From: Stylophora pistillata
Lineage: Eukaryota
Length of the DNA: 64,000 nucleotides
Assembly (NCBI RefSeq): GCF_002571385.2
Contig: NW_019218006.1
Location: 358,140 to 422,139 of the forward strand
Reading direction: 5' to 3'
The translations under genes and the position numbers were made by a program. The notes beneath the pieces were generated by a model. The model did no database searches, was not told the DNA's origin, and was given only the letters and a program-made list of their open reading frames with translations. This document shows positions 5,952-64,000 of the stretch, piece after piece (the stretch's first letter is position 1; each line of letters opens with the position of its first letter).

Positions 5952-20236
<14,285 letters not shown>

Positions 20237-20298
20237 GTTACCTTTCGCTGCATCGAACCATCTGCAGCCCAACTTGATTTTGGCTTTCCGCTAACTAT

Positions 20299-25507: not shown

Positions 25508-26648
25508 TTAACTAGTACTCAGTTTCCTCGAATTACTCTCCGAACATGCGATGCCTATCATGGTTCACCGAATGCTCCTCATCTTCCGGCAGTAAATGAT
25601 TGGATTGAGGGCAGAGTTCAGTTGGACAAGAGTCCATGAAGACACGAATATCATCGTGAAAATAGGTTGTTGATGTGGATGTGTTATAAAATGACGTAGA
25701 CAGTCGACAAAAAGCTGAGGAAAAAAAAAAAAGTCTTTTCATAGGATTACACAATTACTGGTGAACCAGTAGTTTCCATTGTGGTCCTTGCAAACAAATG
25801 AAACAAATGGTCTAAATTGAACATAACATCATTAAGAACCCCAACCGGCCGGAGGCAAACCAGTTGGCTATTTACAAGCGTGGCCAAGGATCTGAACTCA
25901 GCCACATTGCCTCCCAACATACCCAAAATGCAGATAACATACCCAAAGTGCACCGTGAATCCAGTATGTACTCCGAGCAGATTTGTTAACCCTGACATCA
26001 TTTATTATGTTATGGCTGTTTTGAGATAAATTTTCCCTAGCCTGAACCCGTAAATGTTGGCGTCTGATCGTTAAATAAACCTTTAAAGTAAACCATGTGG
26101 TGGAAAAGAAGCAAAATAATTCGATAAGGAAAAATATCCCAAGACATTCTCTGTGAGAAGGAACACGTTTACCAAGCCAAGAAATGCACTAAAAAGCTAT
26201 ATTGTAATAACCGTGATAACCACTCGTTCGGGAGTCACCAGTTGCTGGTAACGCAAAGGCCTCCAAATGGAAACGAATCTGTCCGCACTTACGGCTGTAA
26301 TACCAAAAAACGACGATAGAAAGAGGACATTGGTAATGAGGAAAAAAGAAGTACGTAGTTTATGCAAGTTGCCGTGTACTTGGCCCACTCGTCGAGCGAT
26401 GTATTATGGTTGACCCAGAATTCCAACACCGAGATCAGAAACAGCAAGGCTTAAAAGCAATATTTTTAAAGTTTTTGACAGAGAAGAAGTTTTTCGCAGA
26501 GCTTGGATTGCTAGAATGTTCATGATAATGGTTGGATAGCATAGGAAATGTTGAGGACGGTTTTAGCCACGAGAACAGAATACATTGGATCTTGTAAAGT
26601 CCCAGAGCTTGAATTTTGTCGTTCCGAGCCAGAGAGTGAGTTATTCAT
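25508..26648 (-). pseudogene. Class A GPCR pseudogene, paralog of 29999-30940
   Basis: ATG at 26648. Segments read ALRKTSSLSKTLKILLLSLAVSDLGVGILGQP*, SADRF..IWRPLRYQQLVT, NKSARSTYWIHGALWVCYL|PQLF and LNSALNPIIYC. It has at least two frameshifts, several in-frame stops and a SINE inserted in TM6. Confidence 0.9.
25721..25914 (-). mobile_element. tRNA-derived SINE, internally deleted copy inserted in the GPCR pseudogene
   Basis: Nearly identical to 56614-56802. It retains the 5' tip ggaggcaatgtggc but lacks the tRNA body. Confidence 0.85.
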
Positions 26649-53211: not shown

Positions 53212-54819
53212 CTAGGCGTGCGTGACTTCGTCTCTTGCGGTTCTCCGTGTCTTACGCGGCTCAAGTGTTTTTACTTCGTGTTCTTGCCAGGTCTTGGTGA
53301 CACTACCCTTCCTCCTGAGTGACTGTTGAGTTTTCTATGATATTTACATCACGACACTTAGTAGAAGAACGCTCTCATCATTTTGAACAATCACTGTTAA
53401 AGTTACCTCTGTAACAGGAATGCATACATCCACGAGACTGTCGTTATAGCCAAGATATTTGTTATTGATGCAGCTTTTCTGATGGCAATATTTTTTCGCT
53501 TTTTTCTGTCTTCTCCCAAATATTTTGTCCCTGATGCATTATCAGTGGTTTCGGTTGGAAAACTGGAGGAGCGTGGTAAAACATCCCTGGGGCTTTGAGC
53601 CTTGGTGAAGTCATTAAAAAAACTTATTGCTTTTTGCGTCTGTGACACCGAGTAAGTAGCTTGTGTTTTTGCAAGGCTGTATGAAAATGCTTCCAATGTT
53701 TGCGTTCGAGATGGAGCTTGTGATACCGAAGCGGCAATTTGTTCAGGAACCAGGCCGTCAAACGTAGCCGTCGAACTTTGCGGCGGAGTGAAAGTGTGCG
53801 TTGTAGCTTTGGTGGATATGCTTTGCGATGGAGTTACGGACAACGAGGGATGAATTGTGGCTGTAAAGAAAGTAGATTAGTCAGTAAACTAGAAACAAAA
53901 CCTTAAAAAAGCTTTACAAAAATCATGATCGTGATAAATGGGCAAAAACTTAATAACGTACCGCACTGATTACAAGTCCGTGGACACTGCTGCCTTATGT
54001 TGTCGTATCTGCCGCAGTAATTTGCATAATCAGAACACTTGTCCAGTTTATCTTGACACAGTGGTGCTGAAGTGATAAGACATATTTAGACCCTGCTTAA
54101 ACGGATAAATGTCAGGTGTGCACAATGGGACGGCTATTTTTAAGATATTATATTGAGCCTTGCACAAAATTCCAGTGAAACAAAAGAAATCGAAACTCCA
54201 GGATATTTCTACGCGCGATATTTGTTCTGTATTGGCGCAAAGGTAGAAATGTAGGAATATTTTTTCATGTGGGGTCAACAACCCTCCTACTTCTAAGAAA
54301 TATCGAAGTTCTAGAGGAAGAGACACTTCTCCTAACTACGTCATCAAGTTTCCTTTGGGGCATTGTCATTATTGCAAACTATTCTGTTTTATGTTTTCGA
54401 GTCAATTGACGATGCCCAATTATGGTGTCGATTGTTACAGTAATTCCGCCGTAGCGATCGGAAGTTTTTACAAAAATTCCCCTCTGTAACAGATTTTTTT
54501 AGTCATCGTACAGTCCTGTGTAAATTGTTAATGAATTTACTGGTAAACAAAAGATGTAAAAGGATTAAAACTGGGAACGTAGTTACAAATGAGATAAGAC
54601 GTGGAAAGATTTTCCCAAGAATAAAGGGAAAGATCTCTACGACCATTTTGAAAATAATGGCATCTTACTAAGTAGGATTATTCTTAACCCCACTGGAGGT
54701 GCATAGATTGGTTGCATTGATAAAGTTCAAAATCTGCCAGAAATTTTCGGCTTACCTGCTACTGTTAGGTGAGCTGAATAAAAGAATACTGAAAAGAAAG
54801 CAAACTTGGCGAGGTCCAT
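53212..54819 (-). CDS. ShKT-domain surface protein A: signal peptide + ShK domain + mucin-like stalk + TM + short basic tail, ~241 aa
   Basis: Exons 54819-54756 (MDLAKFAFFSVFFYSAHLTVA), 54066-53962 (APLCQDKLDKCSDYANYCGRYDNIRQQCPRTCNQC), 53860-53407 (S/T-rich stalk, RKKR, ITNILAITTVSWMYAFLL) and 53314-53212 (RRKGSVTK...EVTHA*). Introns are GT-AG, phases 1/1/2. AATAAA at 52971-52966. Confidence 0.8.
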
Positions 54820-56896: not shown

Positions 56897-58079
56897 AGTA
56901 ACGAAGGCTTTCCATTGGTCAACCTTTAGTTTATTCCCGTGTTTCATTTGTGATATATACCCCTCAATTCTGTCTCTGTTTTGTACCGTCATGCGCGTAT
57001 GGCTCTGACAGACACTTGAGAGGCTGATGAAAACTGATTTTTTGTTGACCTCAGCCGGACTAATGTGATTAGAACCACAAAATTTAGTTCATCCAGTTGT
57101 TCTTTCAAAAAGTTATTGCTAGAAATACTAAGATTTGCAAGCAGATAGCGGACTGGTTGTAAGAAACTTTGAAAGTTTCTTATAACCAGTCCGCCAGGCA
57201 TTTTTTTAGATTCGTGATCGCTCAAACAAAAAAGTTATTACGAAGCAACAACTTTACAGCGCGTGAAGGATCTGATAAAGGCTTAAGAAACCAATACTCA
57301 ATATTGTTTTTCTTTGACAAGTTTTCTAGGAAGTGGAAATTGAAGTTTATAGCCTACGGGTCAAGCGCGAGACGACCTCGAAGACTACGCGCGCGTAGCG
57401 AGACTCCAGCGGTAAGTGCTGACCCTCTCGTTCTTCTTTCAGCTCTCGAAGCCTGTCGAGAGACGATTGACAGGTTAGAAGATGCGATGTCTTTCCTTCA
57501 GAAGCCCGCTTGACTTAAAAAAACCTGACGTATCAGTTTCTTGAACAAGCAGACTTGTCGAGGCGAAACTGGATTCAAGGCGGGTAAAGTGAAATTCCAC
57601 TCGTCATGCCAGTTTTTGTTAACAGCTTTAACAAGTTTTGTGTGCTTTTGTGAGTACTGAGTAAACAGTGTTGACACTTGTCGAGGAAAACGTGTCGGTG
57701 TATTTGCGGCGGACTATCTAGCTTCAGATCGTAAACTTCCTAGGTGTCCCTTGCAAACAATGGACTTACAAGCTTGCAGTAACCATAATTTTTTCCTATT
57801 GAAATGTGCGTTTTAACCTGTTTTCACGGGGAAAAAATTTTTGCTAAACTTAGCGAACTTTCTCTCAAACCTGTTACATAAACAAAGTTCCTTATTTTTT
57901 CATCAATTGAAAGCACGTGAAAGACCACCCCGAAATCGAACTAACGAAAATATTTGACTCAAGAGGAAATTGTATCCACATTTTATTTGTCCTCTCTTGA
58001 ATTGCTTCGAGGCTAACGAGGGTGACTTAGTCAGACTAATTTCTGAGTGGACAGATAACGTTCAGTTCCTTCTGTAAGA

Positions 58080-61000
58080 ATGCTGCTCCCATGCGAAAAA
58101 TCTATTTGTCTAATTACGGCGTTTCTTCTAGTAGGCGGCACAAGAACAACTGCAACAGGTATTCTGACGCACTTTTTTTAATTGCTGGGTGAGAAGAAGT
58201 AGAAAAATGATGGCTTCACTTTCATGCTGAAGGTTACTTGTGATTTATTATGATGTCTTGTTGAGTTATAATTGAAAAAGAGTTTCTTTGAAAAGACTTG
58301 GAAGTATTTTCGCTATTGCATAAATAGCGCTCTCTACTGCGAGGATCGTGCATCATACGTACTTGGAAGTAAAGTAAATCGTTATAATTTCATCGCTGTT
58401 TAAGGAAGAAATACGTCATTAAAAAAAATAAACCGGCTAGGACGAATCCTTCCTACTTGTGAACAATGTTGTCAAATATAGCAAGAAAGGCACATGGCGG
58501 TATTAAACATTACCGCTGATATATGCAGTCTTGTATATATGTCGATAAATGGCTAACGGTCAAAACACGCAAGTTACTTGTTCTCTAAGAATTATGAATT
58601 TTTCTTGATTTGGACCGACGACTTGAACAGCACTTCTTTTGTTGGTTGCAACGTCTTTAGGTAGGATAGAATGTACTCACTAAATAACGATGATTGCAGA
58701 ACAACATGGGAAGCGAGAATCATGGATGAAAATGTTCTTCTTTCGCGGTTAATTGGGCTAGCCTTTCAGAATTCAGTTTTACTGTCTTCTATTATACGTT
58801 CTATATGGATTATACTGCGTGGTCCAGGTTTAAACAAAATTTTTGTCATGTGGGGAATTAGTGAGGAGCCCACACTGTCACTGTTCTCTTCCAGAATTTA
58901 TTTCTCAGAAAAGCAGGCAGGACAACGTTACGCGAAGTCAACCTCGTTCCCAGGGTCTCTCATCTTCCCCTCCCCTGGAGCGAGCGAGGGGGACGGGAAG
59001 ATGAGAGACCCCGGGAACGAGGTTGACGCGAAGTCTCTGGCCGACTAAAAACTACTCACAATGATTTACTTATTTCATGAACACACCTTGATCAAAATGT
59101 AAGTTGATTGGCTGTAAAGTTCTTCCTAACAAAGATAAACAAACTGATTTATCGGAGCGGACAGATCGAGACACTCGATTTCCGGCAGATAATTTTGAAT
59201 CTTTACAATACTAATTATCCTGTTTCCGACAGTCACACCTGGGTAAAATCTCCGTCTATGGACGATCTGTTGTTGTTGTTGTTACTGTTGGTTTCAAATC
59301 TTCCAACTGACCAAGGAACGGGATAGGGAAAATTGAAATCATTCCTTTTGCTTCCCCCTTCTTTCAACCTCTTTAGGCCTTTATTTCAGCTTTTATTCTG
59401 ACTTTTTAGGTATCAAGTACTTTTTGGCAACTTGTCCTCGGCAGAACTGTGATTCAGTGTGTGCAACATTTGGTTTCCAATGTGCTAAAGCGGGACAAAG
59501 CTTTCCAGCTTCATCTGCTTTGCCTATATTCGAATCTTTGGGAGTTTCGTGCAAAACTATCAACGGCACCGAACAATATCAAAATGGAGAGCAACCGTGT
59601 TACTTTGCGGAGTCTCACGTCCTGGAATGGGTCGGAGTGTGCGTCGGATTTAAGGGTATCCCTGAAACCATTGACTGCCACATAGCCAACAACCCTTACA
59701 TCCGCAGGTTGTGTCCATGTTATGATCCTACAGGTAAGGCTTCTTGTGGGTTATTCTAGGGCGCTTTCTCTTCAGATCACCAATAAAAGTTGGTTCAACT
59801 GCCAACGCGTCTTGAAATAACCAAGGTTTTGTGCATTTGAAAGGTCCGGTATTCCGACTAAACCGGCCAACCTTTTGAATAATGGAGCGGTTAAACTTGT
59901 TTTTTTTTTTCCAAAAGCTACTCCAAGCCCGAATATATCCGGTAAACCACCGTATACAACAAAACCTCTCAAGACGAACAGGGCCGCTCTATCTACAGCT
60001 GACAACAAAGACCATTCGGAAGCTAATCCTTCAGAGCAGCAGATAGCCCAGATAGGCACAAGCGGCAATGCTGATAGAACAGTTCTCATTGTTTTGGCCG
60101 TTATTGCCGCTGTATTAGCGCTCTGTCTTTTGGGATTAGCAGTTCTCTTTATGCGGAATAAGAGAAAATTTATCAGGTAATTCATATCAAATAGTTATAA
60201 GCTAATTTATGCAGTTGTTTCTTTTCTCGAACTTTGGTCGTGTTTTTGGACGTGGACTTGTGTCAGTTTAATGTACAGTGTAATAATTTATCCTGGATAT
60301 CTTGAGCCCCTATTATTGAGCCCCTATTACATATGAAGCCATCGTTGCTGCTAACCACCATTTCAAGGTCGGGGTTAAAGGAATCGAAATTCTAAGCACA
60401 ACACCTCAATGATAAATCAAGTTGTCTATGCGAAATGCGTGGTTTCCTACAGCTTATCGTCACAGTTTCCACTGTGGCCCCTTAAACGAGTTGCGTTTCA
60501 TTTTTTGGATCCTTAATCGCTTTCATTTTGTCATTCGCAATCCATTTCTATTTTCATTATTCTGAACCTTCTCGGGTAATTTCTTGGTCAATCCACGTCC
60601 GGCTTTTTTGATACATGTCTTCCCTGAAGGTAAACTATTGATTCACTTTTTTTTTAAGTTTAAGTGAACGCAGTTTACAAGGGCCCTGTCCAAAATAACT
60701 AAGAATATCTTAAATATCTTTTTGTAATAATTGACATTAACAGCTCTTTTGCATCCAATTGTCCCAAACCTAAAGGGCTACCCATGGCCAACCAACATTG
60801 GTTTATTTCTTATTGTAAGAATAAAATACAGACTATCCCCTTCTTAGCCAGAAAGGAGACAGATGTCCACAACGAAAAGCTTAATGTCAAATTTAGCAAC
60901 AACAAGAACGATGCAGTCTTATCTGATATGATGGATGGTTTAGCTGTTGAGAATGAGACTGATGAAGAAACTAGGTGGGTGATGTGTTAATCATATTGTG

Positions 61001-62198
61001 ACATTGTATACCTGACAACATAAGGTCTTGAAATGGTTGAAATGTTCTCAATTCCTGAATATACAGCAACTGCGAAATGAGATCGGTTAACTTCTCCCTA
61101 CAAAACACAAACTTGAAGACTGATTCAGAGCAGAAAGAAAGGTAATAAAAGATATTCCGATTTATTGATAGCAAGCCATTTTGATATGAATTGTGGTTCT
61201 TGTCTCTAACGTTATTCGTTTTCAAAAAACTTAATCTTTTCTTCGATACTGTTGAACTCTAGATATGCGAGCCTACCAGAGAAATCCACAGACAACATTA
61301 TGTATGCAAGGTAGGGTCTTGTTGGTGTCTTTTGCAGTTACACTCAATCAATTCTGGTTTTATTTTGAGGTGAAGAGAAATAATTATCACAGGAATGATA
61401 AGGGGTGCTGTACTGCATGCTCCTTTTAGCTTCATACATTTTTTTAAATCTGCAAAGCCACTCTAATCATGCAAATTACGAATACCTCGAGCTTTTCATA
61501 TATTTCAGCTCGGTATATCTGGATGGACATCATGGTGCTGAAATTTTGGTGTCATGCTATCCACCTTACCATCCAACCGGCTCCGGCCGCGCCCATGTTT
61601 GAAAAAAACTCAACAATTTACTTGTCTTTTTATCTTATCTTTTTTGCTCCTAGCATTACCGAAGAAAAGAATATTTCTTGTGTGTCTGGTAACATCAACC
61701 ACGTGTATGACAGGTGAAGTGAATTTTCAAAAATTATATCTCTTTTAACTTAATCATTTTGAACGGCATAAAATGAAAAACGATGTAAAATAAAAAACGA
61801 TTTAAAACTGTTTTGAACGATGGACAAACCTCATCTTTTATAAGAATAGCAAGACAGTCGCTGGTTTGAACTCATCAGTAGCAAAGAACGAAACAAATGG
61901 ACCTAGCTTTACGCAAGGAAACTGAAACGAAACCAACCGGTCATAACCGATAATGACTTTTGGTATTTGGGTTTTACTGCCGATAAGATTATTGCAAAAC
62001 TGATCGATTAGTTGTCAAAAACCAGACCTATGAGACTCGACAGACAAGCAAATCCACAGTGAACTGTTATGATGACGACCACTTCCGCTCTATAGGACCA
62101 ATTTAAGTACATTGCTTCACTCTTTGTCTGCAACTGGGACCTTCTTATTTCTAATCTTATATATATTTTTTATCTTCTATTGCATCAGATTGGTGTGA
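58080..62198 (+). CDS. Type-I membrane protein: signal peptide + Cys-rich domain (GnT-V/MGAT5 C-terminal-like) + P/T stalk + TM + tyrosine-motif tail, ~300 aa
   Basis: Exons 58080-58158 (MLLPCEKSICLITAFLLVGGTRTTAT), 59410-59733 (10 Cys, NCDSVC...C...RRLCPC), 59918-60176 (stalk, TM VLIVLAVIAAVLALCLLGLAVLFM, stop-transfer RNKRK), 60852-60974, 61263-61310, 61654-61713 and 62189-62198. Phases are consistent. Exons 2-3 are strong; the first exon and last two are tentative (a stop at 61715-61717 is an alternative end). Confidence 0.7.
58939..59025. mobile_element. 87-bp hairpin MITE with a perfect 9-bp TSD
   Basis: TIRs caacctcgttcccagggtctctcatcttccc and gggaagatgagagaccccgggaacgaggttg; ACGCGAAGT at 58930-58938 and 59026-59034. 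Confidence 0.93.
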
Positions 62199-64000
62199 GA
62201 TCATTTTGCTGAACCTCTTATGTCGAAGTTTTATAATCTTCAACAGTTGTGGAATCAGCGTAGCCTAGACTCTGTCATGATCATCATTGTGGTTTATGAT
62301 CTGGCAACAATATCAAGCAAATCAAGACCGCTACCAAATAATTAGGATAAATGTGGTGTGAAAATAGTTTCAAAACTAGATGTCAGACAAATAGGGTGCC
62401 CAAAACGACGCAATAAAAAGTAATTATAACATCTATCCTTTTATGTATTTCCATCCCACAAGGGTGTTTAAATTGTAAACACATCGGTAACAATCCAAAC
62501 ATTGGAACTGAATGCCTAATGACAACCCGTATGAAAGTGAGTTTTAGGAAACCTAGTGTGACAAGGACAGTCGCACTTGAACTCGCTGCCTGTATTCTTT
62601 CCGTTATAAAATGATGGGGGTGAAGGGAACGTCCTACGCACGTTTCACAAACATCAAGAAAATAGAAATAAAGCATCACGAAAAATCGGATATACGAGTG
62701 TAAAATTCACGTAAGAGCAAAAAATTAACAGTTCATGGGGTTTTAATTTCATATTTTCACTGGTCACGAAAATAAAAAAGACTAAATCATTTATCACGCA
62801 AAAACTTCATCCCCCCCCACCCTCAATAATCAAATATCAGTAGCTAACGTTCAGCATTCTGATCGATTAGTCGTCATCCGGCGGTATTTAAAGCACCATG
62901 ACCTTTATTAGTACGTTTTTAAAATGCAAACTGGCGTGTTTTCCTTGGCAGGCAAACTCACTTTTATACTGCTGACGATACTTGTCAAGGAAAACATCAT
63001 GTGCCTCTGCAGAATTTTCCTTGGCCTAATCATCTTCCCTCACGTAGGATAATCTAAATGATTATTTGTTTGTCTGTTAAAAATCTGGCATTTAGACGTT
63101 TATCAAGGAAAATCTGTCATCTCCTTGAGTTAATGCACCTATAGAGGAACAGACTAGTCAGTCGAGTGGCACTTTCTTTCCGTTTATTGGACAGGAGAAC
63201 TGTCTGTGTCACTTAATAATTTGAAGCAAGCGGAATATCGTCGGCATCAAGGCAGATTTACTGAAATCATCACAGTCATCAGTGTAAATAAACTGATAAG
63301 ATGAACACTTTGTTTTCCTTGACTGAAGGACACTTTGTGTCTTTTCGACCAATCACACGATCGATAGACTATGCCCTATCACATTTAGACAGTATAAAGA
63401 TAAACATCCATCACAGTAACCGTGTCAAACGAGGTTGTTTTTATCTTCTCGAAAAAACTGTGAATAATCTCCTTAGATGGCAATCTTTTGTAGCTTGGTC
63501 TTATTTGCGATGTCTTTCGATGTAGCCTGGTGTTTCGTTCACGTTACAGGTAAGTAGGATTTACTTAGTAGTACATTTGGTATCAACTGACTGCACGTTT
63601 TGTTGAAGTACGATGACGATATCTCATGCTGACATATAACTTACCTCAAAATTAGTTCTTCCATTGTGAGCTGTCCCATCGACTTTAGACAGTTTGAGAG
63701 GAAATATATTTTAAAAAGGTTTATCAGCGATGAAAGACACGTTTGAAAGCCAAGACTGGAGCTTAGCTTTTTTTATCCCAATCTTGAAGCTGCGATTATT
63801 GTTTCTGTGGTGACGTTAAATTGACCCGATTGCCGCGGTTCAAATTGGCGCAATGATTTAGATAAGAAAGATAAACAAGTCTAATAAAAAGTATCAATTC
63901 TGCTAAGATTTTACTTGCTAGATGTGTGGGAATTATAAATTCCATAAAGGAAACCAAAAGGACCTCTTAAAGTTAAAATACTTTTAACCAGCAAGACATC

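Follow-up and report, generated by a model that had tools for sequence, protein, structure and literature searches.

A candidate coral surface receptor with a GnT-V C-terminal-like domain as its ectodomain

A 64,000-nucleotide stretch of the Stylophora pistillata genome (contig NW_019218006.1, positions 358,140 to 422,139 of the forward strand; hereafter the window) contains a seven-exon gene on the plus strand, the second exon of which encodes a cysteine-rich domain that is almost certainly homologous to the C-terminal accessory domain of the glycosyltransferase GnT-V (MGAT5). The gene product has a single-pass type I layout with this domain as its only folded ectodomain, and Pfam and fold searches assigned it to no known receptor family. 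Both points agree with an earlier interpretation of the DNA letters alone (the sequence-only reading), which had described such a module on a type I protein of unfamiliar architecture. A receptor with a tyrosine-dependent tail is slightly favoured as the function of this protein. Coordinates are positions within the window.

A GnT-V C-terminal-like domain encoded by one exon

The domain is encoded by a symmetric exon (59410-59733, 324 nt, phase 1 at both ends, 107 residues) with the 10 cysteines, NGT sequon and motifs quoted in the sequence-only reading. The exon is flanked by a pyrimidine-rich TTTTTAG acceptor and a GTAAGG donor. Its phase 1-1 ends were kept in all three genomic contigs of other corals that include both; a fourth coral contig spans the 5' end only, and a fifth is a spliced transcript. 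Searched by itself, the domain sequence matched no Pfam family at E ≤ 10, and a PDB sequence search returned two chance matches. Among 1.84 billion proteins, 56 relatives were found at E ≤ 0.001, and the exon-coded domain is therefore not a product of chance.

The reference for comparison was the MGAT5 C-terminal domain (CAZy family GT18; PF15024 positions of about 465-557; human residues G628-L741; PDB entries 5ZIB, 5ZIC and 6YJQ-6YJV). According to the available text of Nagae et al. (2018, PMC6107550), G628-L741 of GnT-V contains five disulfides. An alignment of the new family, termed A2, comprised 47 of 60 proteins and omitted the repetitive P0044, partial or near-duplicate rows (P0012-P0014, P0048) and long proteins. 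Of these relatives, 24 of 47 matched the last 100 or so positions of PF15024 at E ≤ 1 (best 1e-8); the S. pistillata domain itself gave no PF15024 match. The family profile placed all eight core cysteines in register with those of human GnT-V at E 0.11, ranked just behind a partial chance match, and profile-profile alignment with hhalign over the second half of the domain gave 85.6% and E 5.6e-6 across 42 columns. Applied to three MGAT5 domains of S. pistillata, the family profile scored 21.5-31.4 bits, compared with 12.3 for the best of 900 shuffled sequences.

An AlphaFold2 model was built with no templates from the 47 non-MGAT5 sequences, with a predicted local distance difference test score (pLDDT) of 96.5. 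In a Foldseek search with this model, MGAT5 chains occupied rows 1-10 of 14 with a probability of 1.00, template modelling (TM) scores of 0.56-0.69 and E values of 0.005-0.017, none of them below 0.001. VIA-align against 48,161 chains retrieved MGAT5 residues 638-730 at Z 9.9 with the root-mean-square deviation (rmsd) being 2.3 over 88 aligned residues, the next chain being at Z 2.2; a second VIA comparison gave Z 10.1-10.9 and rmsd 2.3-2.4 over 87-92 of the 107 residues. The GnT-V structures were released from August 2018, which we take to be later than the AlphaFold2 training cut-off, so memorisation of the target is unlikely. As a lead from one source, PF15024 is found on 12% of members of the best ESM Atlas clusters. 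The proposed likeness to the MGAT5 C-terminal domain was thus recovered from the predicted fold, the Foldseek and VIA ranks, the PF15024 matches and profile scores above those of shuffled sequences, and the check by AlphaFold and Foldseek that had been suggested for it found MGAT5 similarity. A viral fold library gave no significant match to the model (best E 2.1). Its entry BFVD A0A8F8PNF7, a Clandestinovirus protein (TM 0.57, E 2.1, probability 0.33), is possibly a viral carrier of the domain. DUF7265, matched by two of the 47 members under the cut-off, was set aside, with no genome match and no paper found.

Although the fold, eight cysteines in register, a proline before the last sheet and a closing R-x-C-P-C are shared with GnT-V, the coral protein differs from GT18 enzymes in several respects. 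Its 300-residue product has neither room for nor a match to a GT-B catalytic domain. The enzymes are type II proteins, whereas the coral protein is type I, with an N-terminal signal exon, an internal helix, basic residues and a tail. The GnT-V domain lies at the C-terminus and is packed on the enzyme, whereas the coral domain is N-terminal and stands alone; it is encoded by one exon rather than two or three, and, judging from the aligned range, it appears to lack the last cysteine pair of the enzyme beyond residue 730. The protein is neither a GT18 enzyme nor a member of a named receptor family. After MGAT5, the next structural matches were C-type lectin-like domains (CD302, CTLD7 of PLA2R, KLRG1, DC-SIGNR) at noise level (Z 2.2 and 2.0, E 3.7 and 9.0). 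These have in common with the coral domain an order of strand, helix, helix and closing strand at 6-15% identity, which is a lead only. The calcium- and sugar-binding motifs of C-type lectins are EPN or QPD, and WND; EPN, QPD and WND are all absent from the exon 2 translation.

The eight core cysteines are present in 37 of the 38 full-length rows of the 47-sequence alignment, and the presence of the same eight in GnT-V would imply four disulfides. Cys8 occurs alone in four of the 38 rows, Cys63 alone in seven, and both in one, that of S. pistillata; Pocillopora P0002 and P0003, outside this alignment, also carry both. The two extra cysteines of the sequence-only reading are present in S. pistillata, then, and are not a conserved fifth bond. 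Most scleractinian orthologues have a ninth cysteine at position 8 (serine in P0010), which in most of them would be unpaired and could link two chains. Prediction of a two-copy complex (score 0.05, mark 0.32) gave evidence neither for nor against a dimer. The sequon of exon 2 is conserved in Pocillopora and Orbicella and absent at this place in Oculina and Porites. A family signature absent from MGAT5 comprises Tyr or Trp56 (45/47), Asp60 (31/47; Glu in S. pistillata), Pro62 (45/47) and Tyr64 (42/47), and a Gly-x-x-x-Ile-Pro-x-x-Ile-x-Cys stretch is likewise found in the family and not in MGAT5. The aromatic-x3-D-x-P-x-Y loop is, on these alignments, the best candidate binding site.

Gene structure, orthologues and spread of the domain

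The gene model consists of the following features.

58080..58158, plus strand: exon 1 (26 codons, phase 1 donor), containing the start codon and a likely signal peptide
59410..59733, plus strand: exon 2, GnT-V C-terminal-like domain with eight core and two variable cysteines, phase 1-1
59918..60176, plus strand: exon 3, Ser/Thr/Pro stalk, transmembrane helix (about 60082-60150) and basic stop-transfer residues
60852..60974, plus strand: exon 4 with the in-frame acceptor (joint in runs X6 and X10), coding for part of the tail and its conserved D-x-x-D-G-L-x-V motif
60848..60884, plus strand: frameshifted alternative from an acceptor 4 nt upstream of the exon 4 start (joint in runs X1 and X2)
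61067..61141, plus strand: open 75-nt AG..GT cassette resembling the Tyr-Cys-Glu-Met exon of Oculina, with Asn replacing Tyr
61263..61310, plus strand: exon 5, containing the first tyrosine of the tail (YASL) and the greater part of NIMYASI
61654..61713, plus strand: exon 6, end of the ITIM-like motif (ITIM, immunoreceptor tyrosine-based inhibitory motif) and third tyrosine (YDRL)
62189..62198, plus strand: coding part of exon 7 with the stop codon, followed by the 3' untranslated region (first AATAAA at 62412)

Eight public sequencing runs were compared with the locus; three of the supporting runs are RNA by our guess, and two are on record as polyA RNA. All six introns are GT..AG, and each was spanned by RNA contigs. 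The joint 58158>59410 was observed in one of the eight runs (X6), 60974>61263 in three, and 59733>59918, 61310>61654 and 61713>62189 in four each. At the junction of exons 3 and 4, both 60176>60852 (X6, X10) and 60176>60848 (X1, X2) were observed in two of the eight. The cassette at 61067..61141 was skipped in each of the three contigs spanning its position. This RNA-supported model replaced one of five exons that had been guessed from splice-site signals and proved wrong in the tail. The single ATG within 57900-58082 is the exon 1 start; the peptide that follows has a hydrophobic core and is matched by the N-terminus of Pocillopora P0003.

Splicing at 60852 gives a frame of 300 residues: a signal peptide, the cysteine domain, a stalk, a helix with a hydropathy of 3.25 across 19 residues, basic residues and a tail of 87 residues. 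The stalk has 57 residues, 35% of them Ser, Thr or Pro and 23% Ser or Thr in S. pistillata, and that of Orbicella is richer. The 60848 acceptor shifts the frame to a stop at 60882, giving a 232-residue form devoid of any tail tyrosine. Pocillopora reads in frame through the equivalent of this upstream acceptor in 15 of 15 sequences, and to judge from these proteins a small deletion in the S. pistillata lineage probably made the acceptor a frameshifting one. The tail-less form is either a decoy or splicing noise.

A search for longer proteins yielded five matches among 24 candidates. Orthologues with the shared layout were found in Pocillopora, Orbicella, Oculina and Porites, annotated as 'uncharacterized' or 'hypothetical', the nearest named relative being that of Pocillopora verrucosa (86% identity). 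Mean identity across four orthologues was highest in the head (69%) and the helix (65%), lower in the tail (43%) and lowest in the stalk (29%). Modelling of the full-length Pocillopora orthologue, with five sequences as input, gave no useful structure (pLDDT 37.9, exceeding 60 in the helix region only). In a tree of 57 domains, nine closely related coral domains fall together with support of 99/97, and the receptor clade consists of stony-coral sequences wherever these are named. In the open main texts of the literature, no paper was found on this receptor or on the domain outside MGAT5; supplements to coral expression studies may list the gene.

The domain also occurs in other architectures. 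In Actinia P0022 it is followed by a stalk and then by an end of weak hydrophobicity (hydropathy 1.05; resembling a glycosylphosphatidylinositol-anchor signal by eye); it precedes EPTP repeats in Nematostella P0071 and a trefoil domain in P0057, lies inside the 505-residue protein P0051, and is present in two copies each in the secreted proteins P0024, P0062 and P0063. A profile search of proteins of 469-2000 residues found none among 2028 candidates, which is weak evidence. PF15024 thus hides a separate mobile domain: P0024 and P0037 exceed the GT18 Pfam cut-off through their C-terminal-like domain alone, so short 'GT18' matches in marine animals are not necessarily enzymes. Since a free-standing unit of 107 residues exists in nature and has dozens of relatives, the question of what the GnT-V C-terminal domain does becomes testable.

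Is exon 2 derived from an MGAT5 gene? The S. pistillata genome contains about five MGAT5-like (GT18) genes, on contigs C103 (three clustered places), C317 and C197; a PF15024 genome search matched these three contigs and not the locus of the present gene. One MGAT5-like C-terminal exon (L017) is seemingly duplicated beside a run of N. In all three copies examined, the MGAT5 domain is interrupted by one or two introns, and the coral MGAT5 domains lie on a long separate branch of the 57-domain tree, indicating that exon 2 was not copied recently from an MGAT5 exon. The suggestion of exon shuffling is compatible with the conserved symmetric exon and with the other architectures in which the domain appears. 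With a short alignment and no root, an approximately unbiased (AU) test on 31 domains did not reject (p 0.108) a tree in which MGAT5 domains and the coral receptor clade are united, and on these sequences an origin from MGAT5 is neither shown nor excluded.

Tail motifs and possible roles

Of the 82 gap-free columns in the aligned tails of four orthologues, 18 are invariant, including those of D-x-x-D-G-L-x-V and of three tyrosines, the middle one in NILY-x-S. All three tail tyrosines of S. pistillata lie in YxxL/I motifs, as was the case in 1.3% of 20,000 shuffled tails. The exons of the tail are phase 2-2 cassettes, the middle ones of which are skipped in an Oculina record, and records of Pocillopora and Oculina include isoforms lacking the last two residues. 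IMYASI fits the ITIM consensus [ILVS]xYxx[ILV] used in the part of PMC9546547 available to us; the same text describes ITIM-bearing single-pass proteins, together with SHP/SHIP homologues, in a cnidarian. This ITIM is present in S. pistillata and in four of five orthologues, two of which are near-identical Pocillopora sequences, and the NxxY reading of the central motif is conserved in all five.

The particular scheme considered here, in which a surface receptor binds an outside ligand with its head, its tail tyrosines are phosphorylated, and adaptors or phosphatases are recruited, has about an even chance of being correct. The head would be lifted above the cell surface on a presumably O-glycosylated stalk and would bind a ligand; glycans or glycoproteins from microbes or from neighbouring cells are the likeliest candidates. 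Clustering would let a Src-type kinase phosphorylate the tail tyrosines, proteins with SH2 or PTB domains could dock at the central N-I-[LM]-Y motif, which reads as NxxY and mostly also as an ITIM, and the last YxxL would permit uptake of the bound receptor. A glycan as the ligand is a tentative idea, and an inhibitory (ITIM-type) sign is somewhat more doubtful still. A lectin role of a glycosyltransferase accessory domain has a precedent in MGAT4, according to the accessible text of PMC12616123 and PMC9296478, although a different domain is involved there.

The small disulfide-rich head, Ser/Thr/Pro stalk, helix and tyrosine tail behind a signal peptide are also the layout of vertebrate CD300, TIM and CD164/endolyn proteins. 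The likeness is of layout only, the head of the coral protein being unrelated to theirs in sequence and fold. Sialomucins such as CD164/endolyn have a heavily O-glycosylated stalk and a C-terminal YxxPhi lysosomal signal; in the coral protein Ser and Thr make up 23% of the stalk, and YDRL ends one residue before the stop. An endocytic or lysosomal carrier of this kind, with the tyrosines as signals for AP-2/AP-3 and sorting nexins and a head that captures cargo or shields the membrane, is a rival that we consider rather unlikely. The sialomucin-like layout, the YxxL found one residue before the C-terminus in all full-length orthologues, the isoforms that lose the last two residues, and the retention of NxxY in five of five orthologues against four of five for the strict ITIM all suit a carrier. 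Set against it, a tail of 87-115 residues with three to six tyrosines on separate phase-2 exons exceeds the needs of a sorting tail; there are extra YxxM and YEN motifs (Orbicella, Oculina) and an invariant motif free of tyrosine, and Pfam matches to sialomucins fell far below the cut-off and were confined to the stalk and helix.

Several further observations weigh against a signalling receptor for outside ligands. YxxL/I and NxxY equally serve as sorting signals. Shuffled tails contain one ITIM in 13-21% of cases, and none is present in the orthologue from Porites. Contigs in two of the four runs crossing the junction of exons 3 and 4 use the frameshifting acceptor. No exon was read in about 2 and 6 hundredths of two raw-read RNA runs with the same species label (1,934 and 1,436 million letters), which may reflect low expression. 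The gene looks single-copy: six protein queries found only this locus at meaningful scores in the 398-Mb genome, a lower bound since few candidates were scored. The other own-genome matches were discarded, that on C66 (E 0.43) being antisense to an unrelated 548-residue frame and those on C895, C224, C293 and C910 (E 0.01-0.48) giving no score against the domain profile. In clusters cut at 90% identity, which limits the variation that can be seen, four of 103 sites vary among 15 Pocillopora-cluster sequences and four sites in a second cluster of 15; the single coding variant in exon 2 among the runs compared is L71M. A single copy with near-monomorphism is unlike the fast-evolving receptors of immunity. 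The gene setting, described below, suits a recognition role, and is weak evidence; in animals, gene neighbourhood says little about shared function. We know of no ligand of the GnT-V C-terminal domain. In GnT-V itself, the acceptor-binding residues D378, F380, W401 and K554 lie in the middle domains (PMC6107550), and the portions available of PMC6107550, PMC8889256 and PMC7014118 assign no function to the C-terminal one.

The same data make a polymorphic allorecognition determinant working like Hydractinia Alr1/Alr2 the least probable of the alternatives, a highly improbable one. Hydractinia Alr proteins resemble the coral protein in that both are type I proteins of cnidarians whose tails bear tyrosine motifs, and some Alr proteins carry the ITIM consensus on a single-pass protein (PMC9546547, available in part). 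Their ectodomains, however, are Ig-like and Fn3-like and belong to a large polymorphic family, whereas the modelled coral head matches the GnT-V domain throughout and the gene is seemingly single-copy: fold searches found no Ig or Fn3 fold, the six queries, in a genome search that scored few candidates, found no gene family, and few sites vary in both clusters, as far as the cut at 90% identity lets variation be seen, with L71M alone in exon 2. The allorecognition receptors of Botryllus, as far as the accessible text of PMC12582321 describes them, have Ig and Sushi domains and not the GnT-V-like one.

Low variation and a single copy would suit an adhesion or matrix-contact protein, the head of which would bind another cell or the skeletal matrix, perhaps as a dimer through Cys8, with NxxY linking to FERM or PTB adaptors. 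The high and even conservation of head and helix across corals, the odd ninth cysteine of most scleractinian orthologues and a clade that is stony-coral where named also point this way. This explanation is nonetheless improbable in our view: Cys8 is replaced by Ser in P0010, one small domain on a 57-residue stalk reaches little distance, and the domain is also found in secreted proteins that carry it in tandem and in those fused to EPTP repeats. A role in the Golgi as a helper or regulator of glycosylation, in which the domain would contact GnT-V-like enzymes or their substrates, is very improbable. The one relative of the domain with a solved structure belongs to a Golgi enzyme and the genome has several MGAT5-like genes, yet the type I layout with its long tyrosine tail, the family-specific aromatic-x3-D-x-P-x-Y loop absent from MGAT5 and the long branch between the two argue against such a helper.

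Returning to a receptor, a bolder version would see in the GnT-V C-terminal domain a mobile module of ancient origin that recognises sugars, its fold being perhaps a very distant relative of C-type lectins, and in the coral protein an ITIM-type inhibitory sensor in which the choice between acceptors 4 nt apart switches between receptor and tail-less decoy; the receptor would perhaps be set among stalked recognition proteins with ApeC-CUB and ShK domains. We regard this version as quite improbable. If true, it would supply a function for the orphan domain of GnT-V and give corals a 'do not attack' receptor for self- or symbiont-glycans on a non-Ig fold. Glycans are considered to play a part in how corals recognise symbionts and microbes. 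Coral biology gains a candidate surface receptor that is conserved and unstudied and has tyrosine motifs in its tail; the value of this is limited until a ligand or signal is demonstrated.

Neighbouring genes and other features of the window

The genes around the candidate receptor include the following.

53906-54085, minus strand: ShK-domain exon (PF01549 above cut-off, Pfam)
53406-53876, minus strand: Ser/Thr-rich exon following this ShK exon
50701-50916, minus strand: second ShK-domain exon (PF01549 above cut-off, Pfam)
49797-50057, minus strand: Ser/Thr-rich exon following the second ShK exon
L027:1259-3940 and L028:728-3243, just beyond the window on the same contig: two tandem downstream genes with ApeC, CUB, Ser/Thr stalk and transmembrane helix

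The minus-strand exons represent one or two stalked ShK genes upstream, head to head with the receptor gene, the membrane anchors of which are doubtful (hydropathy 1.47 and 1.38). The stalk gene on the minus strand was considered as a paralogue of the receptor and was ruled out by its ShK head. The ApeC-CUB genes are the next two downstream and have tyrosine motifs in their likely tail exons. ApeC domains of amphioxus bind peptidoglycan, as stated in the available text of PMC8361754, and the two membrane-bound ApeC proteins downstream are candidate microbe-binding receptors.

Intron 1 of the receptor gene contains short interspersed repeats at 58306-58361 and 58936-59027, which are present in very many transcript contigs and reads; the former has three further copies at 37.6-43.9 kb, and the latter is an inverted pair. 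Upstream of exon 1, a 116-codon open frame (57163-57513, plus strand) gave no Pfam match and is probably a fragment of a mobile element. Short units repeated in tandem make up long arrays at about 38200-48600; parts of these arrays are duplicated, they have open frames on several strands, and they are bordered by fragments resembling reverse transcriptase (35-41 kb). An intronless rhodopsin-type G-protein-coupled receptor with a broken-looking second copy, and protein kinase C-like exons (C1, C2), were also observed (30002-30979, 25901-26400 and 12212-20290, all on the minus strand).

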